Below, one piece after another: positions 14,405-58,699 of a stretch of 64,000 bases of DNA. Source of the DNA: a virus (lineage: Duplodnaviria; Heunggongvirae; Uroviricota; Caudoviricetes); IMG/VR virus record IMGVR_UViG_3300005253_000530, one strand, 5' to 3'. How positions within the stretch are numbered: position 1 is the first letter of the stretch; every line of letters starts with the position of its first letter. Position numbers and translations under genes: made by a program. The notes below the pieces were generated by a model. The model was not told the DNA's origin. It ran no database searches and worked only from the letters and a program-made list of their open reading frames with translations.

Positions 14405-14408
14405 TTAC

Positions 14409-17108: not shown

Positions 17109-17120
17109 ACGTCATCCCTC

Positions 17121-18944: not shown

Positions 18945-18946
18945 AT

Positions 18947-20188: not shown

Positions 20189-20200
20189 TTACTACCTCCA

Positions 20201-21130: not shown

Positions 21131-21143
21131 AAAAGTATTTCTC

Positions 21144-29512: not shown

Positions 29513-32500
29513 TTAGTCTCCTTTAATTAGAATTTTGTCTATGTATGCTGCCAACTCTTCGTATGCGGCTCGCATGTTTTCAGTTGTCAGCACATTACGA
29601 ACTTTTATTTTCTTAGCCTTGATCCTATCTAATACATCCTCTACATCTTCTCTTTTCGACTTCAAGATTCTGAACAGCATGAAGCTGGGAAGATCCAACG
29701 GTGCAGATCGTAAATGGTCCAAGAGATTAAACGGGCCTAACAACGCCCTACTTGCGAAATATATCTTATTTTTCCTCCTTACAATGAAATTGATTATCTT
29801 GCTTCCTCTTCCTTCTTTTGCGGCTTGGTGAAAACTGACCAAATCCCATATCCTTAGACTGGCAGCCTCTAGAAGTATCAAATCGCATAGCAATTGGCTT
29901 GCCTCCCTGTCGAAACCCAGCCCAACCATCTTTTCTGTATCTGCGACACATATAGCATCTGTTGCCTCTTCCTGTAGAGATTTGATACCATGTTTTTGCC
30001 TAAAAACAGTATTACCAAGAAAATCCAGTAGGACTTCTAGATGTACATGACTTTCTGCTTCCGTATAAGGGACACAGCGCTCAACTATCCGCATTAGATT
30101 ATAAGCCAATGCAATTACCGGTCCAGTATGACTTTTTACACCAGTAGCTTTCCTTACAAGCTCCGCATGCTCCTCGTTAGTAGGTTTAGGAAATTTACAT
30201 ATCTGAAAATCGTCCAAAGTCATTTCCCTATGCTTAGGAACTTTCTTTGCATTCATACTCTCAATGATCCTATTACATAGATCGTTTGGTTCTCTCATCT
30301 CTTTGCGTAGTAATTCAATAGACGCAGGGTTATGAAAGGACGCTATAAATAGGCTGTCACCATCAAAATCAAGATTTTCAGAAGTAAGACTGTTTCCACT
30401 AACCCTTATGACATATTTACACTGTGGATCATTTGTGACTCTTACATATTGAGGACGTATGGACATGAATCCAAGACAAGGAAATCTTTCCACTAATACC
30501 ACATCCCCCGTCTTCACCTTTAGTGCTCGTGCCATATCACTATGAATTTCTATTGTATTTTTGGGCAAATTATCCACAACACAATGCTTCAGTTCAGTAG
30601 GATAGTCGTCCTCGTTGTCGGCTAGGGCAGCAGTTGCTCTACTGGAATAAGGATATCTTACTGCCATACCATATGTGCTTAGCTCCCCGTTCTTTCCACC
30701 CATCATCCTGGATACATTCTGAAAGTATCTTGTAACAGCTCTCATCAGTTCATTCTGATCATTTACATCTCCTGTTTCTATAAATTTATGAGAAGCTATT
30801 ACTATATGATTGACATATAGCCCAACGGTATTCAGTCCCCATTTACCAGACGGATGACGCCAGCACCTTCGAGATAGAGCATTGGGTATAAATATTGTAT
30901 TATAAATATACTCTATCTTCTGGCCCGGATCTAATATTTCTTGTGGTAGACCCATTGTATATGATTCTACATCTTCTTTGTCCACGATAGCCTGAAAGTA
31001 ACTTGGTATACGCAGTATAAATCCTTCTGGCATATATTCGTCATCAACTATAGTACCTTTGATATTAGCCAAATCGTGAAATATACCCTGGGTTGTATCC
31101 ACGCATGCCACATCTTTGGCATCAATTACTGGAATGCCAGCATCTATTTCACCCTTAGCAGACCTGAGAATGTCTATTCCGTCCTGCAACATGGATACTC
31201 CCTGCGAATAGGACATTATTTCTTCCAGCAGTGGGTTACCTTGGCCGAATCTGGTAGTCAGAGCCTTCATCTCTACATGACTGAACTTTAGCCCAGATGT
31301 CCTCAGTTCTCTGTTATTGGTTAGCTCTGTCCTATCTTCTTCCCACAACTGATCTTCCGGGTCCTTAGTTACTCCCCAAAACATCTTCCCCACTATTGCC
31401 TGAGATTCTCCAAAATATGTATCGATCATCGAAGTTCCATCTTTTGGGAATCCTTTGGATTCTAACGCTGCTTCAAGTTTAGATTTTTCCACCAAAATAT
31501 CATCTTTGACCACGATAGGAACATTTCCCTCATTTAAGTTATTTGCGAGAGCCTCAAGAATTTGACCAAAGTTCTTACGCTTATTGATAGATGTGCCAGA
31601 CATCATTACATCTATTTGCACTTCTTCACCGGTTCTTGGATCCACTTGATGCCCCAGGTCCATAAAGCGTATAATGCCTTTATTACCATGTAAATTAGAG
31701 AATTTACTACCATCCCTTAGAAATCTCTTCCCCTTCACAGTTACCACTACGAGCTTTATTTGTTCGCCATTCAGATCAGTTACAGTTCTGTTTACCTTTG
31801 TTATCTTTGCCTCATCACAACGCATATCCATCATAACTGGCTGACCATCTTTTGAAAATCCAAGCACATCCCCAGTTCTTACCTCTTTACCAGCCTTTGC
31901 AAGTATGTGATCACCATAGATGGCAAATCTCTTTGTTACTGTGTGTGATAACCCTCTGTGCCGGTTGTCTGCAAGAATTTGATCCTCGAAGTTTAGAACT
32001 GTATCGATAATAGCAGTTACCATGTTCCAGCCTTTTCTATCGATGCCTTTCTCAACCAGCTTTTGTATGGACTCAGACCTGATATTTGGTAACTCGTCGC
32101 CTTTCATCCCAAGAGTAGAATATAGATTTCTCTGGGGATTATGGTATTGTCCAAACGGAGTTATATCTCGTAGATCTGTGGTCATTAGATAGTTTTTATC
32201 AGACAACACACCGTCAGATAATCCTATAGCTGTCCACCCAAATTTACCGTAATATCTTTTGTTCTTGTCGACCTGGTACTCCAGTTTCTCGTTGGGATCA
32301 GATATATACTCGAAAACTGGGTCTATAATAATAAGCCGATGATTCATCGCCCAGCTATTCATATCTGTCTCATGTAGTGGCATAATGTTTATAACACTGT
32401 TTAACAGCCTCTGAGTCTCACTCACCATATACACCACTCGATCCCTGTCAAAGGACTTTACGATCTTGTGTACCATCGGACTACCACTCATTTGCGACGG

Positions 32501-33004
32501 TATAATTACATTTACATCTTCACAAAGTAGGCTTTCAACGATTTGATGAAAATTCATCTTTTTCTGCTCCCGCTCCAACCAGAAATCACACAATACTCTA
32601 ACGACATCGTTGTTCTTCAGAAATTCTATACCGTTCTTGCCTACCGTTGGAAGCGGTATTTGTAGACATTTTTCCACATCCTCTCGACTAAACTTAATCC
32701 ACAGAACATAATCAATTACTTCGGTAGTCATGATTATGCCGGCTTTAGTTATACTATTTATACGGTTAAATTCGGCTGCGATGTTGACCAGTAATAGGTC
32801 TGTACGTCTATCGAGAGTTTCCTGATCACAAATCTCCCTCTTTGCATGAGAGAGGAAAGCTTCATGCCGAGCAATCTCCTCCTTTAGCTGTATAACTCTC
32901 TCAAGCCTTTTTATTTCATTGTTTAACTTCTGAACACGGATATCCTTCTCGAGCTGGGATATCTCTGTATTCAGCGCCTTCATCATTTCTGTGTTATTAC
33001 TCAT
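29513..33004 (-). CDS. single-polypeptide two-barrel (multisubunit-type) DNA-dependent RNA polymerase, beta-like N-half + beta'-like C-half
   Basis: beta DPBB motifs RDGSKFSNLHGNKGII...NFGQILEA (cf. RpoB GRHGNKGV...NIGQILE); beta' motifs RFPCLGFMSIRPQYVRV...ENLDFDGDSLFIASFHNPASIELL (cf. RpoC NADFDGDQMAVHVPL); DFDGD encoded at about 30355..30378. Confidence 0.8.
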   Translation of the reverse strand: MSNNTEMMKALNTEISQLEKDIRVQKLNNEIKRLERVIQLKEEIARHEAFLSHAKREICDQETLDRRTDLLLVNIAAEFNRINSITKAGIIMTTEVIDYVLWIKFSREDVEKCLQIPLPTVGKNGIEFLKNNDVVRVLCDFWLEREQKKMNFHQIVESLLCEDVNVIIPSQMSGSPMVHKIVKSFDRDRVVYMVSETQRLLNSVINIMPLHETDMNSWAMNHRLIIIDPVFEYISDPNEKLEYQVDKNKRYYGKFGWTAIGLSDGVLSDKNYLMTTDLRDITPFGQYHNPQRNLYSTLGMKGDELPNIRSESIQKLVEKGIDRKGWNMVTAIIDTVLNFEDQILADNRHRGLSHTVTKRFAIYGDHILAKAGKEVRTGDVLGFSKDGQPVMMDMRCDEAKITKVNRTVTDLNGEQIKLVVVTVKGKRFLRDGSKFSNLHGNKGIIRFMDLGHQVDPRTGEEVQIDVMMSGTSINKRKNFGQILEALANNLNEGNVPIVVKDDILVEKSKLEAALESKGFPKDGTSMIDTYFGESQAIVGKMFWGVTKDPEDQLWEEDRTELTNNRELRTSGLKFSHVEMKALTTRFGQGNPLLEEIMSYSQGVSMLQDGIDILRSAKGEIDAGIPVIDAKDVACVDTTQGIFHDLANIKGTIVDDEYMPEGFILRIPSYFQAIVDKEDVESYTMGLPQEILDPGQKIEYIYNTIFIPNALSRRCWRHPSGKWGLNTVGLYVNHIVIASHKFIETGDVNDQNELMRAVTRYFQNVSRMMGGKNGELSTYGMAVRYPYSSRATAALADNEDDYPTELKHCVVDNLPKNTIEIHSDMARALKVKTGDVVLVERFPCLGFMSIRPQYVRVTNDPQCKYVIRVSGNSLTSENLDFDGDSLFIASFHNPASIELLRKEMREPNDLCNRIIESMNAKKVPKHREMTLDDFQICKFPKPTNEEHAELVRKATGVKSHTGPVIALAYNLMRIVERCVPYTEAESHVHLEVLLDFLGNTVFRQKHGIKSLQEEATDAICVADTEKMVGLGFDREASQLLCDLILLEAASLRIWDLVSFHQAAKEGRGSKIINFIVRRKNKIYFASRALLGPFNLLDHLRSAPLDLPSFMLFRILKSKREDVEDVLDRIKAKKIKVRNVLTTENMRAAYEELAAYIDKILIKGD

Positions 33005-35358: not shown

Positions 35359-36372
35359 CTAGGAAACTGTTGTTGTACTTAGATCATAAGATGTAGCTTC
35401 GACAGTAGGAATATGCAAGGAGCCAGCTCCTGATCTTAACTGGTTTTCTATTTGTTCAAGTGCCCATCTAAAATTATCAATGTTGAATACCAACATTCTA
35501 GAATATAGCTCTCTTCCATTGACGAATGTAAAGTTTACGCCTGTATCACTGTGTTCATCTGGTTTAACAAGTATATAGCTGGGTAAATCATTCATAACTA
35601 ACACAGAATAATAGGCTAAGTCTCCTGGGTTAATACGTTTTTTGAATTTTATACTACCGCCGACTACTTCATCAAGGTGTACTTTTATAAATCTAGTATT
35701 ATGGGAATACCATATGCGCATGTTCTGTAATTTCTGCACAATCGACGCTATCTCAGTTGATATAAGTTCTGTACTTTCTTGTTCCTTTTCTAAGTGCTGT
35801 CTCTTTACTACACTAGAAAGTATTATTAGTTCTATGAATTTATCAGGGACATCCTCACCATACTTTTCAACTATTCTTTGTAATTCTTGGCCGCTTAAAC
35901 CCTGTTGACACCTAGCCCATACATTTATGGATTTAACAGGCCATTTAGATATATCCGGCATTCTGGTGTTAACCTTTACTATGTCCATCTGTGACATAAA
36001 TTTTTCACTTGTCGATATTACTGCTCCATATATGTTTATGCCTAATACTTTTGTAGGAAATTTTTTGGTTAACAATATATCTTTTACATCGTTTATATTA
36101 AAGGTAACCTCTTTTCTACCTAATAAGCTAATCTTATTGTTATTGGTTCTGGAGATAGTATATTGAGTACTATCTACACAAGCTGCAAATAACCATACTC
36201 GCTTATCAGGCTGTCTAATAGATATTATCATAGATACTAATGGCATAAGTCCAGAAAGTTCGTTGTTATTATATGCTTTAATATTAGAATTTATGAAGAA
36301 TACGTCTCCAAGCTTGGCTTCTATTGCATCAGAAGCTGATCCTTGGGTTATACTAACAGTTGGTCGTTTCAT
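35359..36372 (-). CDS. hypothetical protein
   Basis: 337-aa ORF. Confidence 0.5.
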   Translation of the reverse strand: MKRPTVSITQGSASDAIEAKLGDVFFINSNIKAYNNNELSGLMPLVSMIISIRQPDKRVWLFAACVDSTQYTISRTNNNKISLLGRKEVTFNINDVKDILLTKKFPTKVLGINIYGAVISTSEKFMSQMDIVKVNTRMPDISKWPVKSINVWARCQQGLSGQELQRIVEKYGEDVPDKFIELIILSSVVKRQHLEKEQESTELISTEIASIVQKLQNMRIWYSHNTRFIKVHLDEVVGGSIKFKKRINPGDLAYYSVLVMNDLPSYILVKPDEHSDTGVNFTFVNGRELYSRMLVFNIDNFRWALEQIENQLRSGAGSLHIPTVEATSYDLSTTTVS

Positions 36373-36691
36373 GTTGTCTTCCTAATAATATAATCATTAT
36401 CATCCTCACATTTAAGACATTTATGATTACCCATGTATGACATATATCTTACAATGGGTGATATAAATATTTTCTGTGTGGTATCACCATAGTCTGATGT
36501 AGCTATTACAAATCTTTTATTATAGCAATCACTGGTTACTGAATTCATAGGCATACTGCCTGATGTAAATACCTTTCTACCGGCATCTGGGCTATTCATT
36601 ATTGCTCTACATTCCTCATTATTTATAAAACCTATCAATCTACCAGTCAATAATGGCTTGCTATTTTTCCATACTTTTACTCTGAGCATGT

Positions 36692-37171
36692 TTAGTCCTC
36701 ATACACATCTTTTTGTACTATGGTTTCGCCGGTTTTCTCAACCACCAAGGCTAAATCCATTTCTTCACCCATTATTACCGCAAAATCATCTATTGAAATA
36801 CCTTCGTCTGAATCTAGTGCTTTTTCTATGGAATCCGTTACTTCCTGTATATCATTGCATGGTTCCATAATTATAGAATTGCCTACATCATTCATAAGTA
36901 ACCATAACCGATTATCCTGCAGACTGCTGGCTGGGATTTTTACTGGTAATGCAAGAGGATCTAATACCCACCCATATATCAATATTACAGTACTGATATC
37001 ATCATGAGGGCCTATTAGGCATTCATCACTACATAGATATTTATCCAAATCGTTTTTCCACGATGATCCAATTATGATGTCGTTGATTTTAACTATGTAG
37101 ATACACTTATCTACTTTCTCATTAATTTCTTTTATTGTGTCCACTAAGCTATTACTAACTACCATTATCAA
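36692..37171 (-). CDS. hypothetical protein, distant paralog of 37712..38215
   Basis: Shared C-terminal block I(D/E)DFAV(I/L)(M/I)G. Confidence 0.45.
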   Translation of the reverse strand: MIMVVSNSLVDTIKEINEKVDKCIYIVKINDIIIGSSWKNDLDKYLCSDECLIGPHDDISTVILIYGWVLDPLALPVKIPASSLQDNRLWLLMNDVGNSIIMEPCNDIQEVTDSIEKALDSDEGISIDDFAVIMGEEMDLALVVEKTGETIVQKDVYED

Positions 37172-37709
37172 TTTCCTCCATTCTGTTTTCTTTGTAAAGC
37201 ATAAGAAACATATTGAACATTATTATGAATGCGGGAGAATAATTTTGTTCATTTTTTTCTACATCTGTGATAAGATCTTTAAGTGAGCAAGTTATTAATT
37301 CCTCTACTTCATCACATGATATTCTTACATCTTCTTTTTCCGGGTCTAATAGGTAGGTATATAATGCCACAAATTCATTACCAGTTTCTTCTGAAGGAGA
37401 CACTTTAGCTATATTAATAAGATCTGTTTTGTCTATATCTATACCTAACTCTTCTTTTGCCTCTCGTACTACAGCCTCTTGATACTTTTCTACTAAGCGG
37501 ACATGTCCAGAAACAGCTGAACTCCATTTCCCGCCGTTTTCTGTATGAGGAGCTTTTTTCTGTATAATAATTTTGCCGCCAAAAACTTCAATAATTAAAT
37601 GTATAGATCTGTGTAGCTTTCCTCCTCTGTGTAATTGTTCTTTATCTTTAACTGCATACATAAAATTATCATTGCCGTCAACTACGGCAAAAGATTCTTC
37701 ATGTATCAT
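37155..37709 (-). CDS. NUDIX hydrolase
   Basis: Nudix box SGHVRLVEKYQEAVVREAKEELGI (Gx5Ex7REUxEExGU). Confidence 0.75.
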   Translation of the reverse strand: MIHEESFAVVDGNDNFMYAVKDKEQLHRGGKLHRSIHLIIEVFGGKIIIQKKAPHTENGGKWSSAVSGHVRLVEKYQEAVVREAKEELGIDIDKTDLINIAKVSPSEETGNEFVALYTYLLDPEKEDVRISCDEVEELITCSLKDLITDVEKNEQNYSPAFIIMFNMFLMLYKENRMEEIDNGS

Positions 37710-37711
37710 TG

Positions 37712-38215
37712 TTATTCTCCTTTGTTTTCCATTCTTTCTAATCTTTTTTCTTCTATTTTATTTATAATCCTTGTTTTAATAATACCACTTAATCCAATAC
37801 CTATTAAAACGGCAAAATCTTCTATTTCCATATATGTGTGTGTAGCCATTGCAGCTTCTATATAATCTGTAGCTTCATGCATATATCCAAACTTACTTAC
37901 ACCAAACTCGTCATTCAGTACAAACACACTGGCTGATAGCGGCGGAGTAAACGGTAAATCAGCTGGGTCTGCTATTAGTACACGCATCACTGTCATATGT
38001 TCTGGATTTATTGGTTTGTCAAATATACGAAAATAATCAGAGTAAAATACAATATCTGATAGACAATCACATCCCACTATAGTCATATCTGTATTGTCAT
38101 TTGCTATCATTATACATGGTCTTTTGCCATGATGGGCATTTAATTCAGATATACTCATCATGACATTAACTACTGCAGTTTGTACAGTAATAGGAATTTT
38201 TTGTATCGTCGTCAT
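37712..38215 (-). CDS. hypothetical protein
   Basis: 167-aa ORF. Confidence 0.45.
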   Translation of the reverse strand: MTTIQKIPITVQTAVVNVMMSISELNAHHGKRPCIMIANDNTDMTIVGCDCLSDIVFYSDYFRIFDKPINPEHMTVMRVLIADPADLPFTPPLSASVFVLNDEFGVSKFGYMHEATDYIEAAMATHTYMEIEDFAVLIGIGLSGIIKTRIINKIEEKRLERMENKGE

Positions 38216-38217
38216 TA

Positions 38218-39015
38218 TTATTCCCCTGTTTTCTTTTCGACTAAAATCTTGTCTTCCTCGTACTTAATTCTTTTCTGAAAATTACTGGACACATCCGTGA
38301 TTAATGCTGATTGGATTTTCTTGAGTTCTCCCAATAGAACCTGCACATTATCAAACTGACCATCAGCGTGCAGCTTATTGTAGATATTCAGTACAAGAGT
38401 AGACGGCTCGATGTTATCGCGATCAGAAGCATATATAGCTCTTGATGTAGCTTCTACTTGATCGCAGAGCATCAGAATTAATGATTCCAAGGAATCTGGC
38501 CTACCAGTTTTATATCTAAACGCATTAATATTAGCTTTAGGGTCTTTAGACTTTGCTTTCTCAAATATAGATTGTACTGGACAGGTTCCATGGTGCTGGC
38601 TTACGATTCTTATTACATCATCAGGAAAACCATTTGCTACTAGAATAGTGACGGTGTCAGACACATGTCTTGTGATAAGCACGTAACTAACCCATGGTGG
38701 TAAGCCATCATGTATATTGTCTTTGCCTTGATTTTCTGTATATGATTCCGGAAACCACATTTTGCCAATATCATGGTATAGAGCGGACATTTGCAATTTA
38801 TGTGGATCTTTATCTACAGCTGCACAAACATTTTCTACTGAACCCATCAGAGATTGGTCATGTTTATGACTTCCCGGAGCTTTCTCTCGAAACTCTTTCA
38901 ATAAGTGAAATTTAGAATCCATAGGCCCAATTTTCTTGTCTTCTTTATCCTCATACACTTCTTGATCTGCTTCTACCATGGGACTTCCTCCTGCTATATC
39001 TTTGTACAAAGTCAT
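38218..39015 (-). CDS. HD-domain metal-dependent phosphohydrolase
   Basis: HD motif LYHDIGKMW and downstream His/Asp residues. Confidence 0.65.
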   Translation of the reverse strand: MTLYKDIAGGSPMVEADQEVYEDKEDKKIGPMDSKFHLLKEFREKAPGSHKHDQSLMGSVENVCAAVDKDPHKLQMSALYHDIGKMWFPESYTENQGKDNIHDGLPPWVSYVLITRHVSDTVTILVANGFPDDVIRIVSQHHGTCPVQSIFEKAKSKDPKANINAFRYKTGRPDSLESLILMLCDQVEATSRAIYASDRDNIEPSTLVLNIYNKLHADGQFDNVQVLLGELKKIQSALITDVSSNFQKRIKYEEDKILVEKKTGE

Positions 39016-39664
39016 GCATATCCATTTTTATGAAATCTTTTACCATAGTTAAATAATGTAGCCTAGCAGTAGAATTTATTGTCATAAACTCTGGGTGGTA
39101 TTGAACTCCCATCGAGTTGATTTTAGGGAATATTGCTGCCTCCACCTCTTCATCTGGTGGATTCTTTCTAGTACCTTTTGGGCCTATATATGCCGCAGAT
39201 CTTCTCGGCTCTGCCCAAGCTACAATTTCTGCATCTTTTCGTAGCTTCACTAGTTGGTGATGGGTACTTGTCACATCCATAAAAGAATCCATGTGGCTTA
39301 CATACACACCATGTTGTCTAGCTATACTATGATTGGTTATATGTTGATACATAGATCCACCAGCCATAACATTCAGGAATTGAAAACCACGGCATACACC
39401 AGTCATTTTTATATCATACTTTCTACAATAATCAAATATTTTTTTTTCGTACATATCACGTTTGAAATTCGTCATACATATTTTTCTTGGATCTTTCCCA
39501 TTGTAAAAATAGGGATGTATGTCCTCACCACCAGTAAATAATGCAAGCGATATTTTTTCTGGCGTCTTAATGAGTTTATCTACGCTCTTTGTAACGGATC
39601 CAACTTTATTGAGTAAATGTTTGTAAAGAGGATCTCCTCCAACTATTAGAATTTTATCCTTCAC
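38951..39664 (-). CDS. class-I glutamine amidotransferase-like / peptidase C26 (gamma-glutamyl hydrolase, PuuD-like)
   Basis: Catalytic Cys motif MTGVCRGFQFLNV and C-terminal His region GVQYHPE. Confidence 0.65.
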   Translation of the reverse strand: MKDKILIVGGDPLYKHLLNKVGSVTKSVDKLIKTPEKISLALFTGGEDIHPYFYNGKDPRKICMTNFKRDMYEKKIFDYCRKYDIKMTGVCRGFQFLNVMAGGSMYQHITNHSIARQHGVYVSHMDSFMDVTSTHHQLVKLRKDAEIVAWAEPRRSAAYIGPKGTRKNPPDEEVEAAIFPKINSMGVQYHPEFMTINSTARLHYLTMVKDFIKMDMHDFVQRYSRRKSHGRSRSRSV

Positions 39665-40754
39665 TTGTGATCTCCTTTTGCTTTGATGCTCTTTTATATT
39701 TTATTATTGATCTGCTTTTTAGGAATTTTGTTACATACATTCGGGATGTGGTATCTTCAGCAGCCATTATTGCCTTTATTATATCAGGATCTAATGCCTC
39801 ATATATGTTTATATTAGCATGTATGGCAGATATTTTACCAATAATAGATGAGCACAAGAAACTACTTGTGCATTGATGTGCTAAATTTTTATCGTGTTTC
39901 TTTGGGTTTGTTGCAAATCGTTGTAAACCTATCATCCAGCTTATATCAGTAGTAGCAGCTTCAATATTAGATAGCTTAGTCTTTGTTTTTTTGTACCTAC
40001 CAGTTTTTGGATTTATCAGTCGTGGAACTTCATTGTACTTTCTAAACACAGTTATAGTGTGGTGTTCAGTAGTACTAATAGCTATACGGCTCGCAAATAC
40101 ATAGGCAGCATAAAAGTTCATCTTACATTTATCAGTGAGGTATATCGCAACTCTAACAAGCCCAGGATCTTCCCTTAAAACTCTTAACATTGATAGGTAT
40201 AGATATAATTGAGCTTGAGTTAAATCTGTGAGATCCAATACTGCAGTACCCTTTCCAACTGCGTTGTGTTCATTATAAGAATAATTGCCATTACCCAGTT
40301 TAATAGGAAATTCAAACATTTCTATCAAATTTTCATCTATATAATCCGGTAGCATTTTATGCTCTTCAGCAAGCTGTATCCATCTGATACATTCTTCCAT
40401 ACTCAGCAGAATATTAGCACCAGGATTATAGTATTTTCGCTTTTTACTATAAGGCTCCTTAAGATAAATAGTATAAAATATTCGATTATATTTATCGCTT
40501 TGTTTGTATAATTTGCCTAATAACCCTGCAAAACACGCATGATTAGTGTTTTTCCAGATGTCCTTTGTATTTGAATCAATGTCATGTATATCATCTGGCA
40601 GCCTATCATCATGGAACAAGCCATATTCTGTATAGTTGATCCCAGGTGCATAGCTCATGTTTACTATATCTCTATCTATCCATGGTTTTTGCCTATGAAT
40701 GGATGGCAGTGTTTTTTTTACGCTATTGTCAGATCGTTCGTTGGCTGTTCGCAT
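39654..40754 (-). CDS. hypothetical protein
   Basis: 366-aa ORF. Confidence 0.5.
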   Translation of the reverse strand: MRTANERSDNSVKKTLPSIHRQKPWIDRDIVNMSYAPGINYTEYGLFHDDRLPDDIHDIDSNTKDIWKNTNHACFAGLLGKLYKQSDKYNRIFYTIYLKEPYSKKRKYYNPGANILLSMEECIRWIQLAEEHKMLPDYIDENLIEMFEFPIKLGNGNYSYNEHNAVGKGTAVLDLTDLTQAQLYLYLSMLRVLREDPGLVRVAIYLTDKCKMNFYAAYVFASRIAISTTEHHTITVFRKYNEVPRLINPKTGRYKKTKTKLSNIEAATTDISWMIGLQRFATNPKKHDKNLAHQCTSSFLCSSIIGKISAIHANINIYEALDPDIIKAIMAAEDTTSRMYVTKFLKSRSIIKYKRASKQKEITSEG

Positions 40755-41041
40755 GCGTTTTCTTTTTTCTCCTTTTCCGCAACTTCTATAAACATCAATT
40801 CGGTCATTCGGATTGCAGGTATGAGCTTGAATACAACATCTTTGCTAGTTGAATTATCTTCAATTCTGATAATATAATGTGATTCATCTCTTTGATTTAT
40901 ACCTTGATACCCATCCCTTTTAAAATAGATGTCTGTTACCACTAAGTCTTCCATACCAACAGGAGTTTTTCCAACTTCATAGGTAAAATCATTAGCTATT
41001 AAACATACAATTTTTTTCATAGTATTAATACCCCCTTTGTT

Positions 41042-42268
41042 TTAGTACAATTCTTTCAAAAGACTTGCTTGAAATTTCATAAAATCCTTATTATCCTTTA
41101 GCTTTTGATATGATCCCATTACCATGCCGCGGCTTGACCGAAAGTCGTTGTTTACACACCATTCCTTTTTTAGATCTTTATCAATTACACTATATACACC
41201 GTTTTCACGCATGTATTCAAATGAAGCCAATGAATGTACAATTTGACCTTCTGGGCCTTGTGGCGGATTTTCCCACGGCGAATGCCCTTCCTCTACGTAA
41301 CTTTGTATAGATCCTCTTAAAGATCCTATATGTAAAGGGTTACATGAAGACAGCCCTGTAGATGCAAGGTAGGGTCGCAGATTTTTCCATATTTTATCCG
41401 CTGTGATAATATCGCTCTCATCGATAACTCCACGAATAGTTTCTTCATCGAATCCTACGGCTTCTCTATAAGTTTCGTCCATGTTAATAGTCACCATTGA
41501 CCATGCCATTCTTGCCAATCCATATACTAATGATACGAACATTGGCGATTTTAGCCACCAGCAACTGGGAGTTCTGTACTCTATGCCATAAGGAGTCGGT
41601 CTAAAACATCCGGCTTTACCATATTTTGATCTTCTCAGTTTAGATCCATTGTCGTTATCAAGGCGCATTGTAGGTATGGTAAGTAGTAAATCCAAGAATC
41701 GTATAAGCCGAATATGCCCGTCTTCTGTTTTTGCAAGCTTGTACTCCGGCTGATCCTTCGATAGATACGGTGAAGACAATCCAAGGTGTATGTGACCACC
41801 GGCGTATCTATGTGGATGCTCAGAGGCGTCCATTTCTGGAGTGTTTGTGGTACATGTATAAGCATTGAAATCTGGTTCGCATCCAAATACACGTGCTTCT
41901 GGATCAGCTTTGTTTATAACTGACTCGCGGATTTTTTCAGCTGGAGAAAGAATAATTTGATGATTCTTTGGTATTCTATTATAAACTTCTCTCCATACCT
42001 TTTCGATATTACCTGCGAAGTATTCTCTACACGACTGATGAGCTACAGCCATCTCGGCCTGTATACCATCGAAAAACAGTCTGCTAAGTTTACCGTCCCT
42101 GGCTTGTACTTTTATAGGATCATTTTTGCTGGGGAAGAAATTATCAGCACTTCGCACCCGGCCTTTCTCATCACCTATAAAAAACTCTGGGTCTCCACCT
42201 ATCCTGGGTAAATAATTGACTTTGTATATTCTGCGTCCTATTTCCTTATCTATCTCCGAAATCTTCAT
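41042..42268 (-). CDS. GCS2/GS-like carboxylate-amine ligase (amidoligase), paralog C
   Basis: IGGDPEFFIGDEKG ... RYAGGHIHLG. Confidence 0.6.
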   Translation of the reverse strand: MKISEIDKEIGRRIYKVNYLPRIGGDPEFFIGDEKGRVRSADNFFPSKNDPIKVQARDGKLSRLFFDGIQAEMAVAHQSCREYFAGNIEKVWREVYNRIPKNHQIILSPAEKIRESVINKADPEARVFGCEPDFNAYTCTTNTPEMDASEHPHRYAGGHIHLGLSSPYLSKDQPEYKLAKTEDGHIRLIRFLDLLLTIPTMRLDNDNGSKLRRSKYGKAGCFRPTPYGIEYRTPSCWWLKSPMFVSLVYGLARMAWSMVTINMDETYREAVGFDEETIRGVIDESDIITADKIWKNLRPYLASTGLSSCNPLHIGSLRGSIQSYVEEGHSPWENPPQGPEGQIVHSLASFEYMRENGVYSVIDKDLKKEWCVNNDFRSSRGMVMGSYQKLKDNKDFMKFQASLLKELY

Positions 42269-42302
42269 TACTACATATCCTCCTTTTTATTCTTATTATT
42301 TT

Positions 42303-42980
42303 CTATTTCGTTAGTGCATCACGTATTCTATATGCACTTATTAAAACCTTGTTGACATACGGTATCTCATAGTATCTTTTTCCTTTTGGTAACTTTGTAC
42401 TTCCTGTATTGTAGCGATGTAGAGTCTTCACTACATTGAATTCAGCATGCTCATAGTATTCGCTGAATATAGCAATGCCAGATTTTATGTTTATATCTAT
42501 CCAGTATAAACTTCCTTCCTTTCTCGCACCATTTTCTAGTAGTGCAGGCTCCTTCTTCCACACCTTGTACCTTATTTGCATCAATCCTATTGCATCTTTA
42601 TTACTTTTAGCAAATGGATCAAATCTAGACTCTACCCACATTATAGCAGCTATAAGTATGGGGTCAATGCCGTTTCGGGGAGCTTCTTCAAGTATGTAAA
42701 GCACTATTTTTTCGGCGATCTTCCCGTCTAATTTGGGCTGAAAATCCATTATCACTCTTATCAATCCTTCCCTTAGTTCCTTTGATGCAGATAGCCTTAT
42801 GTTCATAGCGGTTTCATCGGCTGTTACTCTTTCCACCATTCTCAATTGTTGCCAATGGGATTTTTTCAGAGCTTTTGTATCAATAAATTGCCTATATCCT
42901 AGAAGTGCTACAATTAGCAAGAGACTTACAAGAAGTGTTATTGCAAGTGTTGATTTACTTACCCTTTTTGATTGTTCCAT
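42303..42980 (-). CDS. lytic transglycosylase (SLT domain) with N-terminal signal anchor
   Basis: SLT motif AIMWVESRFDPFAKSNKDAIGLMQI; N-terminal TM helix. Confidence 0.75.
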   Translation of the reverse strand: MEQSKRVSKSTLAITLLVSLLLIVALLGYRQFIDTKALKKSHWQQLRMVERVTADETAMNIRLSASKELREGLIRVIMDFQPKLDGKIAEKIVLYILEEAPRNGIDPILIAAIMWVESRFDPFAKSNKDAIGLMQIRYKVWKKEPALLENGARKEGSLYWIDINIKSGIAIFSEYYEHAEFNVVKTLHRYNTGSTKLPKGKRYYEIPYVNKVLISAYRIRDALTK

Positions 42981-43135
42981 GTTTGATCCTCCTCAATAGA
43001 ATATTTACCACACCACATTAGTCTACACCTTTTACCACAAATATCACATTTACCGTTTATGTCACCCGCATGTGTACGAGCATTACAATTTAATACATTT
43101 TTATCAGCTTCATGACACTTATGATATATAAACAT
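42959..43135 (-). CDS. small zinc-ribbon protein (58 aa), first of three tandem paralogs
   Basis: Own translation MFIYHKCHEADKNVLNCNARTHAGDINGKCDICGKR...; start overlaps stop of next paralog (ATGA). Confidence 0.45.
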   Translation of the reverse strand: MFIYHKCHEADKNVLNCNARTHAGDINGKCDICGKRCRLMWCGKYSIEEDQTWNNQKG

Positions 43136-43308
43136 CACGCACCAGCCTTTTTATATATAAGTTTATCATAACAAATACATTCGAAAGTAGGATTATGTAT
43201 TCCACAAATTTCGCATTTGCCCCATTCCAGAAAATGGTGTGCATATTCACCTAATTCACATTCTGTTACTTTTTCATCTCTATTGTGGCATTTTGCACAT
43301 ATTTTCAT
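43135..43308 (-). CDS. small zinc-ribbon protein (57 aa), second tandem paralog
   Basis: Own translation MKICAKCHNRDEKVTECELGEYAHHFLEWGKCEICGIHNPTFEC... Confidence 0.45.
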   Translation of the reverse strand: MKICAKCHNRDEKVTECELGEYAHHFLEWGKCEICGIHNPTFECICYDKLIYKKAGA

Positions 43309-43552
43309 TATTTTTTCCTCTTATCTTGAAGAATGGATCATTCCAGCTATTTGTGCTATGATATGGGCCCTTTTCACTATCACTATGTGACACATGCGCA
43401 TCATACCCGTAGCACGTATATACTGTTTGACCTTTTATACCACAAATATCACATTTTGTTACAAATCCAGCACATCCTATATGCATGGCCAGAGTATGTG
43501 GGCAGTTAGTTACATTTCTATCTTTTTCGTGACATGCTTTACATACGTCCAT
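43280..43552 (-). CDS. small zinc-ribbon protein (90 aa), third tandem paralog
   Basis: MDVCKACHEKDRNVTNCPH...KCDICGIKG shares the C.CH..D..V..C...KC.ICG pattern. Confidence 0.5.
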   Translation of the reverse strand: MDVCKACHEKDRNVTNCPHTLAMHIGCAGFVTKCDICGIKGQTVYTCYGYDAHVSHSDSEKGPYHSTNSWNDPFFKIRGKNNENMCKMPQ

Positions 43553-45795: not shown

Positions 45796-46263
45796 GACTT
45801 CCTCCTTTATCTTCTTACTGGGTGGTATAGGTGTATATGAAGAGCTATAGCACCTATGTCCAGATTACTTTTGGCAGCTCCTATTAATTTGAGAGCTGTG
45901 TTAGGATCAGAATATATACACTGAAGAGCTGTCTTTAGTTGATTAATAGCGTTTTCCAGGGGTGTTTCTATTTTTTTGTTGCGTTCCATTATGATTTTTC
46001 TCCTCTATCCGCCACTTCTATCTTAGACACATAGTCTGATGAGCCATCATTGATAATGACTATTTGAAGACCGTAGATCTTTAATAACTTGTCTACGGAT
46101 TCAAGGCATACATCCGTCCGGTTATTATCACAAAATTTATAGATTGTGCCTTTGGTATCGCCATTATTTTCTTCTAGTTTGCGATCAAATTCCTTATATT
46201 CATCTGAGCCATATTCTGCTGTTCTCATATCTGTATCCTCCTTTTATCCATTTCTAAATAAGA

Positions 46264-46366: not shown

Positions 46367-46849
46367 TTAATCTTTATAAAGCTTTACTTTATATTCTTTA
46401 GACTTTATCTTATGGTAGTACTGTTCCACTTCTTTGACCCCGACAATTCTAAATCTACAAATATCATCTGGTGTTTCATCTTCTTCATTGAGCTTCCATG
46501 TAAGGCATTCTTCCGCTTCCTCTATTGTATCAACTAATCCTACTATGACTGGTTTAGCATCACCAGATGTATTAATTATTAAATAATAAGTAGGTTCTTC
46601 AGACTGCTCTAATGATAGGTTTAGTATAGATCTGCACTTTTTACAAGTAATTGCTCCAGCTAAAAGTGCTCTATCATTATCGGTTAGATTTGTATTATGA
46701 AGTATTGGTTCGTTTGCTAACCATATCCCACAAAACGAAGAAAATGAAGGGGAATGGTATGGATTATTGTTTTTATCTATATTTCTTTTTAATCCATGTG
46801 TTGTTTTATTTTTATATATATTACCTATGTAATCTTCTCTGATTTTCAT
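46367..46849 (-). CDS. hypothetical protein, paralog of 49801..50019
   Basis: N-terminus MKIREDYIGNIYKNKTTHGLK...FCG parallels MEIRKDYRGNITSGKTTHGLK...FCG. Confidence 0.5.
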   Translation of the reverse strand: MKIREDYIGNIYKNKTTHGLKRNIDKNNNPYHSPSFSSFCGIWLANEPILHNTNLTDNDRALLAGAITCKKCRSILNLSLEQSEEPTYYLIINTSGDAKPVIVGLVDTIEEAEECLTWKLNEEDETPDDICRFRIVGVKEVEQYYHKIKSKEYKVKLYKD

Positions 46850-49514: not shown

Positions 49515-49808
49515 TCATGTCCCCCTTTGTCCGTCTCTGAATAAAAACATAGGCAGGTCATCTATCCATATATTGGGTTCAATGCCTTGTTCTTTAAGAA
49601 AAGGTAGTTTGGCTCTACGGCTTGTGAATATTACTTCACATAGTTTGCCTATGGATTCTAATACTTCTTTTCCCTCATACTCATATCGCATAGTAGCACA
49701 GATGACGCGGTGTCCTGCTTTTTTAGCGGCGACAACAAAATCTGTCAACAGCTCTGGGATAGCACTGAATGTACCGTCGTAGTCTATGCATATAATAAGT
49801 TTACTCAT
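49515..49808 (-). CDS. small HAD-superfamily-like hydrolase
   Basis: Motif I IICIDYDGTFS (DxDGT) and C-terminal IWIDD. Confidence 0.45.
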   Translation of the reverse strand: MSKLIICIDYDGTFSAIPELLTDFVVAAKKAGHRVICATMRYEYEGKEVLESIGKLCEVIFTSRRAKLPFLKEQGIEPNIWIDDLPMFLFRDGQRGT

Positions 49809-50019
49809 TTATACTTTTACATGTCTTACAAGTAATTTTTCTAGCCATAGCTTTTCTTTTGTCTTCAAGCCACAAATCGTTTGCAAGAGGTATCTTTGTT
49901 GGGCTAACACGAATATGTCCGCAAAACGAAAAATGTGTCTCATCATCTGCGGCTGCTTTTAGCCCGTGTGTTGTTTTACCACTTGTAATATTACCTCTGT
50001 AATCTTTTCTTATTTCCAT
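49801..50019 (-). CDS. hypothetical protein, paralog of 46367..46849
   Basis: See paralog. Confidence 0.45.
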   Translation of the reverse strand: MEIRKDYRGNITSGKTTHGLKAAADDETHFSFCGHIRVSPTKIPLANDLWLEDKRKAMARKITCKTCKSINE

Positions 50020-52312: not shown

Positions 52313-53200
52313 CTATAAATACTTATATATCAATATTTCCAGATCTTTCAACAGCTGTTTCTCATCAAACGGCTTAAAGATAGCTTTTTCTAAGCTACCA
52401 TAGTGCATCTCCAGACATTCCAGTAGTAATGCTTTGATAGCTCCTTCATCTGGGGAATGTTGTAGCTTACTTTTAGTGTATAGTTCTTCTAAGGATTTCT
52501 CCTTCATTTCGAAGTACTCTACTATCTGGTGCTGTTTCCATTCACCCCGCCGGATAGATTTTAACTGCTCTCTGTTTCTTTCCAGATCTAAGTCCGCCTC
52601 CATCAAGATCTGTTCCACTTCGTTAAGTAAGCGAACAACATGATAGGCAAACTTCACATCGTATCCATATTTTTCTACTAGCTCTTTTCTTTTACCCTCA
52701 GGGTTCTTGGTGTTCATCTTGTGCATCTGACCATATGCGTAGCCTTTGAACTTATGCCAAGATCCCTTATGTAAGAACATTTTTCGGTTTTCACGAACAT
52801 GTTCACCTATCTGAGTGGAATGTATGATACATCTTCTTGGAACGAACAAGCTGTCTATCATATTGGGATTGTTGTCCATACATAACTGAAAGAACTTTAC
52901 TATATTATAGATAGCCAGATCATATTGAATATGTCGTCCATCATTTGAATCTATGTGGTGTTGTTGGTATTGTTCAAATTTCTTTTTCTGCCTACCAAAT
53001 CCTTGGATCTCTCCAGCTAAATGTGGGAATATTAGATCTTTTGGGGGTATAGCAAATCCATATACATCCATATCAGAGTTATCAGAGGAGGCCCCATAAG
53101 CTGTAGATCCCATTATACACTCATAATGTATATTATTTTTGAGGAATGTGGGCGGAGTTATAAGTCCTTTACTGATTAGTATGTCAACTAATGATCCCAT
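52313..53200 (-). CDS. Pol-beta-superfamily nucleotidyltransferase (minimal NTase core + helical C-terminal domain)
   Basis: IMGSTAYGASSDNSDMDVYGF fits GS-x9-13-DxD NTase signature. Confidence 0.6.
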   Translation of the reverse strand: MGSLVDILISKGLITPPTFLKNNIHYECIMGSTAYGASSDNSDMDVYGFAIPPKDLIFPHLAGEIQGFGRQKKKFEQYQQHHIDSNDGRHIQYDLAIYNIVKFFQLCMDNNPNMIDSLFVPRRCIIHSTQIGEHVRENRKMFLHKGSWHKFKGYAYGQMHKMNTKNPEGKRKELVEKYGYDVKFAYHVVRLLNEVEQILMEADLDLERNREQLKSIRRGEWKQHQIVEYFEMKEKSLEELYTKSKLQHSPDEGAIKALLLECLEMHYGSLEKAIFKPFDEKQLLKDLEILIYKYL

Positions 53201-53295: not shown

Positions 53296-53433
53296 TCAGC
53301 TGTCTATATTATCTTTAGCTTGTTCCATCAGCTTCAGTGCAAATTTAGAATCAGAGTATATAGATTGCATAGCTACCTCTAATTGTTTAATAGATCTTTG
53401 TATTGCTCTTTCTATTTTTATATTACGTTCCAT
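53296..53433 (-). CDS. small protein (44 aa), paralog of 45807..45989
   Basis: Own translation MERNIKIERAIQRSIKQLEVAMQSIYSDSKFALKLMEQAKDNIDS vs MERNKKIETPLENAINQLKTALQCIYSDPNTALKLIGAAKSNLD. Confidence 0.45.
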   Translation of the reverse strand: MERNIKIERAIQRSIKQLEVAMQSIYSDSKFALKLMEQAKDNIDS

Positions 53434-53698
53434 AATATTTATCTTTGTTATTCCTTTCTTTTCTTTTCTTTTCCATCAAAAACTCATCTTCCTTTTCCTT
53501 CCAGGTCCAACTTGTATACCAATTCAACTGAACATAGTTTGTTACACCACAATGTTTGCAAACAAATTCGGACTCTATATTTTTTTCCATTATATATCCG
53601 TCGGCATTGGCTTTTGCATCAGGCACTATGTCGTATTCAAATGGCGTAATCATGCTATCATGTAACCAACCACACTTTGCGCATTTAATCCTCATCAT
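53423..53698 (-). CDS. zinc-ribbon protein, copy 1 of duplicated module
   Basis: MMRIKCAKCGWLHDS...CKHCG; paralog of 58480..58662. Confidence 0.55.
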   Translation of the reverse strand: MMRIKCAKCGWLHDSMITPFEYDIVPDAKANADGYIMEKNIESEFVCKHCGVTNYVQLNWYTSWTWKEKEDEFLMEKKRKERNNKDKYYGT

Positions 53699-53707
53699 AA
53701 ACCTCCA

Positions 53708-53944
53708 TTATTCCTGTACAGTTTTACAACAGTAGATCCACCTAATGTAACGTATTTCCTTTATCAATGCCTTATATAGGGACATTTTACGCACAAGTAG
53801 CTCATCATACCCCCACTCATCAAGCACTTTTTTGAGTGCAAACGCGGCCATGTTTATAATAAAAAACGTTGCCAGCGCGACAATAAGTAATGGTTTGTTA
53901 GTTTTCATTAATAGTTCTCCCCGGGACATTTTTGGTTCGGGCAT
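53708..53944 (-). CDS. small membrane protein, copy 1 of duplicated module (true start probably MKTNKPLL)
   Basis: One TM helix; about 80% nucleotide identity to 58700..58957 over the core. Confidence 0.5.
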   Translation of the reverse strand: MPEPKMSRGELLMKTNKPLLIVALATFFIINMAAFALKKVLDEWGYDELLVRKMSLYKALIKEIRYIRWIYCCKTVQE

Positions 53945-54821: not shown

Positions 54822-56192
54822 TTATAGTCCTCCCATTGTAAATGCTCTAAGTATTAGTTCGTACATTAGTTTATCGTTGGTAGGGTCCAGTTCGTTATCT
54901 ATTATATGATCTTCTACCTGCTGTATGATCTGGCCTACGATTGGCCCAGGTTTTATACCTACGATCTCCATTACTCTTTTTCCACTTACCAGCTTTTTTG
55001 GTTTTTTAGTTACTTGGTCATGCCACTTCTCTGTAATTTCATATACCCGCTTCATTTCTTCTTCAAACTTGCCTTTATGTTTGAACTTTTCACCTCGACA
55101 AAACTCGTCCACTCTGGCAACCTCGGCCAGTACATCAAAATTCCCACTACCTACAAGTCTGGCAATTTTAGACGGCTTCATCTCTGATAGGTAGTGTAGT
55201 TTCATATGGTTTGCAGCTGCAAATACAATACTTTCTTTATGATACAGGCTGAATTTAAGCCTATCACATATATCGGCTGCCATCTTTGCACTATGGTATT
55301 CATGTCTTTTATAAGTAGGGTTTCCATCTATTTCTTCGAAAGTGACACATTTGCCTATATCATGTAAAAGGACAGCTATCTTGTAGATAGGATCTCCTTC
55401 CTTCATTAGATTAAGACATGCTATCACATGACCAAAAACGGTCGGGCTTTCAGGATGATACTCCATATTGTGTTCAAAGCATTTCATATCCCATACTTCC
55501 GGAAGTATCAGCTTAAGTAATCCTAAATCATCAAGTATAAGTATAAATCTTGCAAACTGAAGACCGGACTTTTTAGCAGCTTTTATTATTTCCACACGTA
55601 TTCTTTCTGGTGTGACCTTATGTATGAGTTCAGATAGATCTATTACAGCTTGCTTGGTTCTTTCGCCCAAAAAAAAACCTTCGAAGGCTGCAAATCTCGC
55701 TGCCCGTATCATTCTTAAGTGATCTTCTTGAAATCTCTTATAGGGATCTCCTACTGCTCTAACCAGCTTACTTTGTATGTCTGCTGTGCTACCTACATAG
55801 TCTATAAAAACTCCATTACTATCGAGACCAAGAGCATTTATAGTGAAATCTCTTCTGACAACATCCTGCTTGAAATCATTCACTATTTCTACACTGTCAG
55901 GGCGTCTACCATCCTTATACTCACCATCTGAGCGAAACTGAGCCACTTCAAACATAAACTCGGCCCATCTGACTGTGAGTATACCAAAGTTTTTGGACTT
56001 TCCTATATTGTAGGCCGTAAAGTTCTTTTCCAGGATTTCTATTGGGCAATTAGTGGCTATATCCACATCATTACTTACTTTATCAAGCATAAGATCTCTC
56101 GGTGTGCCTCCCACTATGTAAGCCTTATATCCAAGCTCTTCTATTCTTTTCAGGAGGTCTATACCAGTATCTAATAGATTGTTAGTTTTCAT
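54822..56192 (-). CDS. cca: tRNA nucleotidyltransferase (CCA-adding enzyme) with HD domain, catalytic motifs intact
   Basis: YIVGGTPRDLMLDKVSNDVDIAT (GGxxRD + DxD), RDFTINAL, ... LLHDIGK HD motif. Confidence 0.8.
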   Translation of the reverse strand: MKTNNLLDTGIDLLKRIEELGYKAYIVGGTPRDLMLDKVSNDVDIATNCPIEILEKNFTAYNIGKSKNFGILTVRWAEFMFEVAQFRSDGEYKDGRRPDSVEIVNDFKQDVVRRDFTINALGLDSNGVFIDYVGSTADIQSKLVRAVGDPYKRFQEDHLRMIRAARFAAFEGFFLGERTKQAVIDLSELIHKVTPERIRVEIIKAAKKSGLQFARFILILDDLGLLKLILPEVWDMKCFEHNMEYHPESPTVFGHVIACLNLMKEGDPIYKIAVLLHDIGKCVTFEEIDGNPTYKRHEYHSAKMAADICDRLKFSLYHKESIVFAAANHMKLHYLSEMKPSKIARLVGSGNFDVLAEVARVDEFCRGEKFKHKGKFEEEMKRVYEITEKWHDQVTKKPKKLVSGKRVMEIVGIKPGPIVGQIIQQVEDHIIDNELDPTNDKLMYELILRAFTMGGL

Positions 56193-58662: not shown

Positions 58663-58699
58663 TTTCTTACCTCCTTTTAAGTTTTTCTATAACCTTCTC

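Follow-up and report, generated by a model that had tools for sequence, protein, structure and literature searches.

The question raised by this locus is whether the genes for joining and cutting amide bonds found at positions 36692-42268 of a 64-kb stretch of DNA (the window) from an uncultured large marine-sediment phage form one system with the nucleotide-hydrolase genes lying beside them. An original prediction, made from the sequence of that block, saw in it four co-directional genes, those of a NUDIX enzyme, an HD hydrolase, a C26 gamma-glutamyl-hydrolase-like peptidase and a fourth GCS2-like ligase, and proposed that with a GGCT-like gene at 61882-62316 they serve a regulated cycle of amide-linked modification, written by ligases and erased by hydrolases. 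The reading favoured here, to which we give a probability of about 0.5, is that two functional units meet at the locus: a linear amidoligase pathway (unit A) and an HD-NUDIX pair that would remove nucleotide signals (unit B). The four named enzymes were located by Pfam profile search on the minus strand where they had been placed. The block holds eight genes, p100, p366, p167 and p157/159 having been passed over, which in the order of transcription are:

41042-42268, minus strand: ligase C, a phiEco32-type COOH-NH2 ligase type 2 (GS/GCS2 superfamily) of 408 amino acids
40718-41020, minus strand: p100, a small conserved open reading frame (ORF) of no known family
39654-40754, minus strand: p366, a new protein family
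38951-39664, minus strand: C26-type hydrolase of the class-I glutamine amidotransferase (GATase) fold, PuuD/SpuA/Lin1909-like
38218-38979, minus strand: soluble stand-alone PgpH-type HD domain
37712-38215, minus strand: p167, a paralog of p157/159
37155-37709, minus strand: NUDIX hydrolase (Pfam NUDIX)
36692-37165/37171, minus strand: p157/159, a paralog of p167, with ATG 37165 as the likely start

These are real genes and not chance ORFs, since each is preceded by a Shine-Dalgarno sequence and is kept at 60-83% amino-acid identity in a relative of 270 kb (L069); for the enzymes the PHROGs names agree with the Pfam names. That the block is co-directional is true but says nothing of a unit, because all genes of the 64-kb window are on the minus strand. 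From the gene directly upstream of ligase C, ending at 42980, to an RNA polymerase gene at 29513 the genes are packed or overlapping throughout, and promoter-like and terminator-like sites in the window are at or below the expectation from shuffled sequence, none of them bounding the block. The limits of the block are thus arbitrary, and it is part of a single long minus-strand array of closely packed genes.

Ligase C is matched by Pfam COOH-NH2_lig (PF14395) with 53 bits (cutoff 25; 3.7e-14) and, across residues 22-297, by phrog_3815 (3.3e-43), and compared with the usual phage forms of 265-290 amino acids it has a C-terminal extension of ~110 amino acids. All 24 family members compared, ligase C included, share residues H159, D193, R212, G217, G220, E230 and R232, and ligase C matches 311 deposited phage records at ~30% identity. 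ATP-dependent carboxylate-amine ligation is predicted from this family membership; no solved structure is detectable by sequence for the PF14395 family.

The C26 protein is matched by Peptidase_C26 (PF07722) with 78.5 bits (cutoff 20.5; 7.9e-22), by the class-I GATase profile (PF00117) with 32.8 bits (cutoff 22.8; 6.7e-8) and by phrog_7218 (4.3e-35). The motif MTGVCRGFQ, from which its domain had been called, holds the nucleophile Cys91 (39392-39394), and the catalytic triad is intact, being completed by His190 (39095-39097) and Glu192 (39089-39091): Cys91 within GVCRGFQ and His190/Glu192 within YHPE align with the same motifs of Lin1909 (PDB 3fij) and 7d4r. Among 71 phage members of the family the triad is kept in 69-70 and the CRG motif in 68. 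PDB matches are 3fij, 7d4r and PuuD (6vtv); the best NCBIfam neighbour is gamma-glutamyl-CDP-amidate hydrolase (37.7 bits, cutoff 250), PuuD scores 22 bits (cutoff 266), and all equivalog scores are far below their cutoffs. The excess of the C26 over the GATase score, the CRG motif and the neighbours Lin1909, 7d4r, PuuD and gamma-glutamyl-CDP-amidate hydrolase favour grouping the protein, within this fold, with the stand-alone gamma-glutamyl-amide hydrolases. Exact copies of it occur on six independently assembled contigs of the marine-sediment metagenome PRJNA259156. The C-terminus (38951-38998) is a basic Arg/Ser-rich tail, RYSRRKSHGRSRSRSV, encoded in part within the overlap with the start of the HD gene; it is retained only in the closest relative, L069, and is probably not functionally important.

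Comparison of gene neighbourhoods, proposed with the original prediction as a check, was made across 60 unrelated viral loci with a ligase homolog, whose ORFs were searched with the window proteins. In 52 of them a homolog of C26 stands at most 10 kb from the ligase, always on the same strand and directly upstream, with a median centre-to-centre distance of 829 nt. The other companions of the ligase are ATP-grasp (40/60), class-II GATase (~37/60), Amidoligase_2 (32/60) and the gamma-glutamylamine cyclotransferase GGACT (14/60). The NUDIX, HD and p366 genes and the other unnamed genes of the window were found in none of the 60, even at relaxed thresholds, nor was a MazG-type pyrophosphatase, and HD and NUDIX are no part of the module outside the clade, their functional grouping with gamma-glutamyl chemistry being unsupported. 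Ligase and C26 together form the core of an amidoligase module that is known and widespread in phages, of the phiEco32, LUZ24/PaP3 and PA11/Zobellviridae type. In phage O4 the module consists of gp58 (C26), gp56 (class-II GATase), gp55 (ligase), gp53 (amidoligase) and gp52 (ATP-grasp), and the same module is annotated in Vibrio phage IME234, in Salinivibrio phage CW02, where it includes an AIG2 gene, and in Cronobacter phage GAP52; in UFV-P2 an AIG2/GGCT gene follows the ATP-grasp gene. The module was described by comparative genomics (Iyer et al. 2009) and, in so far as that work is cited in PMC10580990, cell-wall modification and superinfection exclusion were proposed for it; our literature search found no experimental study of the module.

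Further members of the module stand upstream in the window, as a set at 13952-23928 homologous to the Zobellviridae module genes of O4 and IME234, its ATP-grasp and class-II GATase genes being 18-27 kb from ligase C:

13952-14404, minus strand: GNAT protein (Pfam)
14409-15494, minus strand: RimK-like ATP-grasp protein (Pfam)
15765-17108, minus strand: ligase A (Pfam PF14395)
17121-18944, minus strand: class-II GATase (Pfam)
18947-20188, minus strand: gene of an unnamed family
20201-21130, minus strand: class-II GATase (Pfam)
21144-22772, minus strand: p542, possibly a divergent Amidoligase_2 (hhalign)
22726-23928, minus strand: ligase B (Pfam PF14395)

Ligases A, B and C (15765-17108, 22726-23928 and 41042-42268) are mutually paralogous, as are the two class-II GATases. 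The fourth GCS2-like ligase did not bear out, these three being the only PF14395 ligases found in the window. However, p542 (minus strand), which has no Pfam match even at E<=10, aligns with the profile of phage Amidoligase_2 over 150 columns with an hhalign probability of 65%, and it may be the missing type-1 amidoligase of the window and a fourth protein of the GS superfamily.

The remaining member lies 19.6 kb from ligase C, where a GGCT-like gene had been called:

61882-62316, minus strand: GGACT/AIG2-like gamma-glutamyl(amine) cyclotransferase (Pfam PF06094, 31.5 bits, cutoff 22.8, 2.9e-7; phrog_2520)

An N-terminal YGS motif is present, and the phage family has Y6, G7 and E83 without exception. 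The catalytic glutamate, whose absence would have spoken against the assignment, is there: Glu83 (62068-62070, in MDAIEG) is aligned by the family profile with the Glu of LDDFE in mouse GGACT (1vkb). A catalytic position at AEVW, taken with YtfP as reference, was ruled out, as E. coli YtfP carries an Arg and not the catalytic Glu at that position. The link of GGCT to the ligases was also well founded: in addition to the 14 loci of the survey it is seen in CW02 gp16 and UFV-P2 ORF29, and in the clade relative L076 the gene is 4.4 kb from the ligase. Around the GGACT gene stand:

63029-63442, minus strand: YAcAr/SLOG-family protein
61420-61872, minus strand: DUF2059 protein
57072-57953, minus strand: SPFH/Band-7 protein

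SLOG/YAcAr domains of jumbo phages have been linked to signalling by molecules derived from NAD and ADP-ribose.

Within the clade of the window the arrangement around ligase C is stable. Upstream of the ligase lies

42303-42980, minus strand: membrane-anchored SLT lytic transglycosylase (Pfam SLT, 1.2e-15; N-terminal hydrophobic anchor)

and the relatives, with the identity of their p366, read as follows:

L069 (270-kb contig), p366 63%: SLT, ligase, p100, p366, C26, HD, p167, NUDIX, p157, p106 ... RNA polymerase
L070, p366 64%: the L069 order up to HD, where the contig ends
L072/L073, p366 45%: the L069 order up to C26, where the contig ends
L076, p366 31%: GGACT (4.4 kb upstream) ... CCA-adding enzyme, ligase, p100-like, p366-like, C26, HD, NUDIX; no SLT and no p167
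L080, p366 ~33%: ligase, 96-aa ORF, p366-like, C26, HD, 172-aa ORF, NUDIX
L082, p366 ~31%: SLT, ligase, 96-aa ORF, p366-like, C26, HD; no NUDIX
L079 and L081, remote p366: no ligase, C26 or HD nearby

The conserved unit is a ligase of ~410 amino acids, an ORF of ~100 amino acids, p366, C26 and HD, usually followed by NUDIX: all five genes persist in L069, L070, L076, L080 and L082, where identity falls as low as 31-51%. In the window 29 nt are common to the C26 and HD genes, and overlaps of 29-62 nt are found across the window and four of these five relatives. Ligase C is 82% identical in L069, and in L076 the identities are 44% for the ligase, 44% for C26, 51% for HD, 42% for NUDIX and 54% for the RNA polymerase. 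The NUDIX protein is 83% identical in L069 and missing from L082. The SLT gene precedes the ligase in L069, L070, L072/L073 and L082, not in L076; in this last contig the ligase is adjoined by the CCA-adding enzyme. A homolog of p157/159 follows NUDIX in L069 and L076. The mutually paralogous p167 and p157/159 gave shallow alignments and mediocre models with no fold match, and p167, being absent from L076, is probably a lineage-specific duplicate. Outside these contigs no close relative of the window was seen among deposited phages and IMG/VR contigs: megablast of 36000-43000 against 50,697 phage records gave no match, and the IMG/VR search gave no close C26 homolog and no relative of p366.

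Two components of the conserved unit are new. The p100 gene, whose last 37 nt overlap that of p366, encodes a protein with an acidic C-terminal part and no Pfam, PHROG or NCBIfam match; an ORF of 96-103 amino acids stands at its position in L069, L070, L071, L072, L076, L080 and L082, p100 being alignable by sequence with four relatives (28% identity and E 3.5e-5 by BLAST to the ORF of L076). For p366, deposited as LCGC14_0682520, exhaustive HMMER search found 204 homologs, with no Pfam match and no sequence match in the PDB, and the conserved residues, a polar set such as enzymes have, include C74, N90, R191, E195, H231-H232, R238, D288 and C301. Structure prediction gave a confident model with no close known fold and a weak structural resemblance to the PafA/Dop fold, and p366 is probably an enzyme of a new, uncharacterised family. 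A divergent ligase was rejected at the sequence level (hhalign 2.7% against type-2 ligases and 0.1% against Amidoligase_2). In canonical loci an unnamed ORF, of which p366 may be a diverged version, lies upstream of C26; two weak hidden Markov model matches of p366 are located directly upstream of C26, and hhalign gives 19-43% for four clusters of these upstream ORFs and <1% for the largest. The BFVD matches are also weak and fall on uncharacterised proteins of module-carrying phages, one of them GAP52 gp029, directly upstream of the GAP52 ligase. The contig L081 (Logan ERR15087771, 49,960 bp) carries a remote p366 member together with Macro, two metallophosphoesterase, peptide deformylase, GGACT and TROVE/Ro60 genes and with no ligase or C26 nearby, so that the p366 family is not restricted to the amidoligase cassette.

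The two hydrolases that follow C26 are of another kind. The HD assignment was sound, with 49.4 bits for Pfam HD on the ORF at 38218-39015 and a match to NCBIfam HDIG (TIGR00277); the gene most likely starts at 38979, after AGGAGG, giving a protein of 253 amino acids. By phmmer its residues 25-241 match residues 6-221 of the 222-residue chain of the HD domain of Listeria Lmo1466/PgpH (PDB 4s1b; 7e-27) with ~30% identity. The seven PgpH metal ligands are all present, H40, H69, D70, H105, H129, H130 and D173 corresponding to H514, H543, D544, H580, H604, H605 and D648. The protein shows no transmembrane or hydrophobic segment (maximum 19-residue Kyte-Doolittle score 1.22) and is without the 7TMR-HDED receptor part of PgpH. 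Instead of the general role in nucleotide metabolism given to it before, these features make it a candidate phosphodiesterase for cyclic di-AMP (c-di-AMP) or a related cyclic dinucleotide. Among the 50,697 phage records it matches only eight, unannotated and mostly short fragments. PgpH of Listeria monocytogenes cleaves c-di-AMP to 5'-pApA and does not cleave c-di-GMP, and high accumulation of c-di-AMP lowers phage production in Listeria. Molecules of c-di-AMP type take part in newly described defences, and decoy cyclic-nucleotide defences exist. In jumbo phages, HD-superfamily phosphodiesterases, Nudix and YAcAr/SLOG proteins have been read as counter-nucleotide systems, in a survey that names HD-GYP and alarmone types.

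The NUDIX domain call stands equally, with 48.1 bits (1.6e-12) for Pfam PF00293 and an intact canonical Nudix box, GHVRLVEKYQEAVVREAKEELGI (consensus GX5EX7REUXEEXGU). Its closest PDB entries are isopentenyl-diphosphate isomerase (IDI; 4e-6), NUDX1, DR0079 and YfcD. The type 1 isomerase profile NF002995 gives 48 bits against a cutoff of 127, all NCBIfam equivalogs are far below their cutoffs, and a Ser stands at the position of the catalytic Cys67 of IDI. By these affinities the protein is a member of the IDI/YfcD/NUDX1-like branch and not an isomerase.

The favoured reading is built on what the analysis shows: the identities of the genes, catalytic residues that are intact, the linkage of ligase and C26 in phages at large, and the conservation of the cassette within the clade. 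Unit A would comprise ligase C, p100, p366 and C26, the upstream ATP-grasp protein, ligases A and B and class-II GATases, and the distant GGACT, as a split and rearranged clade-specific version of the phage amidoligase module. Its GS-fold and ATP-grasp ligases would spend ATP to join a carboxylate, most likely glutamyl, to an amine; the PuuD-like C26 hydrolase would then cut the gamma-glutamyl amide, and GGACT, where present, would remove the glutamyl group as 5-oxoproline. The glutamyl group would act as a transient handle or nitrogen carrier, and the end result could be a small amide-linked metabolite or a modified host molecule, with precursors of the cell envelope as the leading candidate target. 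In unit B, HD, as a binuclear-metal phosphodiesterase of PgpH type, would most likely cleave c-di-AMP or a related cyclic dinucleotide to the linear dinucleotide and NUDIX a nucleoside-diphosphate-X compound, the two together removing nucleotide signals of the host. What we infer is the sequence in which the reactions run, the substrate of each enzyme and any coupling of unit A to unit B. A linear pathway is favoured because C26 is the constant neighbour of the ligase and because pairs of a ligase and a remover are typical of such pathways. In PuuA/PuuD and EgtA/EgtC a gamma-glutamyl group is added and later removed, and in butirosin biosynthesis BtrG removes a protective gamma-glutamyl group.

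Several points weigh against this reading. The linear pathway is argued by analogy. A hydrolase for editing or undoing the ligase product would be compatible with this gene content too, and so, equally, would a glutaminase feeding ammonia to the ligase. In the window the order of ligase and C26 is reversed, with p100 and p366 between them, and the canonical adjacency is replaced by proximity within 1.4 kb. The c-di-AMP specificity of HD is drawn from ~30% identity to PgpH, for a host that may or may not make c-di-AMP. The adjacency and overlap of the C26 and HD genes may reflect a nucleotide-linked substrate shared by both enzymes, and the division in two units would then be less sharp. Finally, the conservation of the cassette may in part be inherited synteny and not selection for linkage, since the genes downstream to the RNA polymerase are collinear too.

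The regulated reversible cycle would have ligases set gamma-glutamyl marks on a protein or metabolite, and C26 and GGACT take them off again, as a means of controlling functions of the host or the phage. This proposal was right in that ligases and intact gamma-glutamyl-removing enzymes co-occur, and GGCT and C26 do recur with ligases across phages. The weak resemblance of p366 to PafA/Dop, a known writer and eraser pair, can be counted for it, as can glutathionylspermidine synthetase/amidase, a regulated pair of synthetase and amidase. C26 is not an eraser added on, however: in 52 of 60 loci it stands next to the ligase, a constancy that is the pattern of sequential steps, as in PuuA/PuuD and BtrG; the same pairing marks linear pathways. 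With no regulator, sensor or candidate target found, and with genes that form one constitutively co-oriented array whose internal control signals are not above chance, a cycle in preference to biosynthesis is unlikely. That same adjacency is typical of glutaminase and synthetase subunit pairs, and it could be explained if C26, with its class-I GATase fold and triad, were the glutaminase half of a two-component amidotransferase that passes ammonia to the GS-fold ligase, possibly for a peptidoglycan-precursor carboxylate. MurT/GatD is such a case, an ATP-dependent ligase with a class-I GATase-fold partner acting on a carboxylate, and the cell-wall context is plausible with SLT next door; yet MurT has the Mur-ligase fold and not that of GS, GatD belongs to a CobB/CobQ-type branch, and the resemblance is one of logic. 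Class-II GATases also belong to the module, the membrane-anchored lytic transglycosylase precedes the ligase in four contigs of the clade, and cell-wall modification was proposed for the module (Iyer et al. 2009, as cited in PMC10580990). The affinity of C26 to stand-alone hydrolases (C26 score well above GATase, CRG motif, PuuD/Lin1909/gamma-glutamyl-CDP-amidate hydrolase), the two genes that separate it from the ligase in the clade and the involvement of GGACT, which points to gamma-glutamyl-amine intermediates, make an amidotransferase unlikely, though less so than the cycle.

Hypermodification of a nucleic acid or nucleotide would bring both sets of enzymes together, the ligases adding an amino acid or polyamine, C26 and GGACT trimming it, and HD and NUDIX clearing unmodified or competing nucleotides. 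The amide enzymes do adjoin nucleotide hydrolases in the clade, the canonical Zobellviridae module adjoins MazG-like pyrophosphatases and a primase, and the best NCBIfam neighbour of C26 is an enzyme acting on a nucleotide-linked amide. Nonetheless, that neighbour scores 37.7 bits against its cutoff of 250, MazG is found in none of the 60 ligase loci, HD matches a cyclic-dinucleotide phosphodiesterase and not a dNTPase, and no gene for a hydroxymethylase, base kinase or glycosylase-type transferase was found in the window, so that we regard hypermodification as very unlikely. Less likely still is a Pup-like tagging, in which p100 would be the tag or carrier, ligase C and a PafA/Dop-fold p366 would conjugate it through a glutamyl carboxylate, and C26 and GGACT would remove or recycle the isopeptide remnants. 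No sequence or profile similarity between PafA/Dop and p366 was detected, the conserved Cys, His-His, Arg, Glu and Asp of p366 do not obviously fit a metal and ATP site of GS type, and no Pup-like C-terminus is present. A single functional machine made of ligase, p100, p366, C26 and the PgpH-type HD, in place of two units, is improbable. In one version, ligase and p366 would form, on a molecule of nucleotide origin or an envelope precursor, a gamma-glutamyl or amide conjugate to be processed by C26 and HD; in the other, destruction of host c-di-AMP would be coupled to amide modification of the envelope or osmolyte machinery that c-di-AMP controls.

Other features of the window, all on the minus strand where a strand is given, are as follows:

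29513-33004, minus strand: protein of 1163 amino acids matching RNA polymerase Rpb2 domain 6 (beta-like) and Rpb1 domain 2 (beta'-like)
42959-43552, minus strand: three tandem small Cys-rich paralogs of 57-90 amino acids, with zinc-ribbon-like CxxC...CxxC, just upstream of SLT
397-3731, 9423-10790, 54822-56192 and 52313-53200, minus strand: tRNA and RNA-repair gene set
53423-53944 and 58480-58957, minus strand: two-gene segment duplicated ~5 kb apart (48-63% protein identity)
45807-45989 with 53296-53433, and 46367-46849 with 49801-50019: pairs of small-ORF paralogs
5263-6950, 10741-11604 and 12082-13125, minus strand: N6/N4 DNA methyltransferase next to a LAGLIDADG homing endonuclease; sigma-70 region-2 protein; RuvB-like AAA+ ATPase

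The protein at 29513-33004 resembles an RNA polymerase of compact form with beta and beta' fused; it is 54% identical in the distant clade relative L076 and is always located downstream of the cassette. A homolog of the small Cys-rich paralogs is also found in L076. The window has seven tRNA genes (Thr, Leu, Phe, two Pro and two Glu), two paralogous CCA-adding enzymes with HD domains and an RlaP nucleotidyltransferase. The Rfam scan of the window gave tRNAs only and the PADLOC scan for defence systems only marginal matches. A common N-terminal domain in four ORFs downstream of the block was rejected, the similarity being not significant.

The amidoligase module, predicted in 2009, is carried by hundreds of sequenced phages, therapeutic Pseudomonas and E. 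coli phages among them. What is known here is this widespread but uncharacterised module, and what is new is its rearranged, clade-specific variant, of interest chiefly for the PgpH-type phosphodiesterase and for p366 as a conserved family. New handles on the module are offered by the clade in p366, in the small partner ORF and in the persistent, often overlapping link to that phosphodiesterase. If HD hydrolyses c-di-AMP, the phage would interfere with an essential bacterial second messenger; were the single machine true, no earlier phage system would be known to act on c-di-AMP signalling, and the amidoligase module would gain a biochemical function. Should HD and NUDIX be mere neighbours, the locus is one more case of a known module, unremarkable but well documented.

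The closest known system is the canonical module itself, which shares with the window the COOH-NH2 ligase type 2, the C26/class-I GATase, the class-II GATase, the RimK-like ATP-grasp and the AIG2/GGCT-like gene, ligase C and C26 being the closest counterparts in the window of O4 gp55 and gp58. The window differs in having its set split over three places (14-24 kb, 38.9-42.3 kb and 61.9 kb), in having three type-2 ligase paralogs and no clear Amidoligase_2, in the size of ligase C (~410 amino acids against ~270) and in the PgpH-type HD and NUDIX genes that follow, seen in 0/60 loci elsewhere. With PgpH (PDB 4S1B) the HD protein shares the whole HD catalytic domain, aligned with its seven metal ligands kept, while it differs in being soluble and phage-encoded and in the absence of the extracellular 7TMR-HDED and transmembrane parts. 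In butirosin biosynthesis (BtrJ/BtrG) an ATP-grasp ligase and an enzyme of the AIG2/GGCT fold likewise occur in one system; the window is without carrier protein or aminoglycoside genes, and the homology is at the level of fold and family only. PuuA/PuuD and PauA/SpuA also pair a GS-fold ATP-dependent ligase with a C26 Cys-His-Glu gamma-glutamyl-amide hydrolase, PuuD (6vtv) and 7d4r being among the nearest solved relatives of the C26 protein, whereas in the window the ligase is of the PF14395 and not of the GlnA type and no oxidase or dehydrogenase genes stand between the two.

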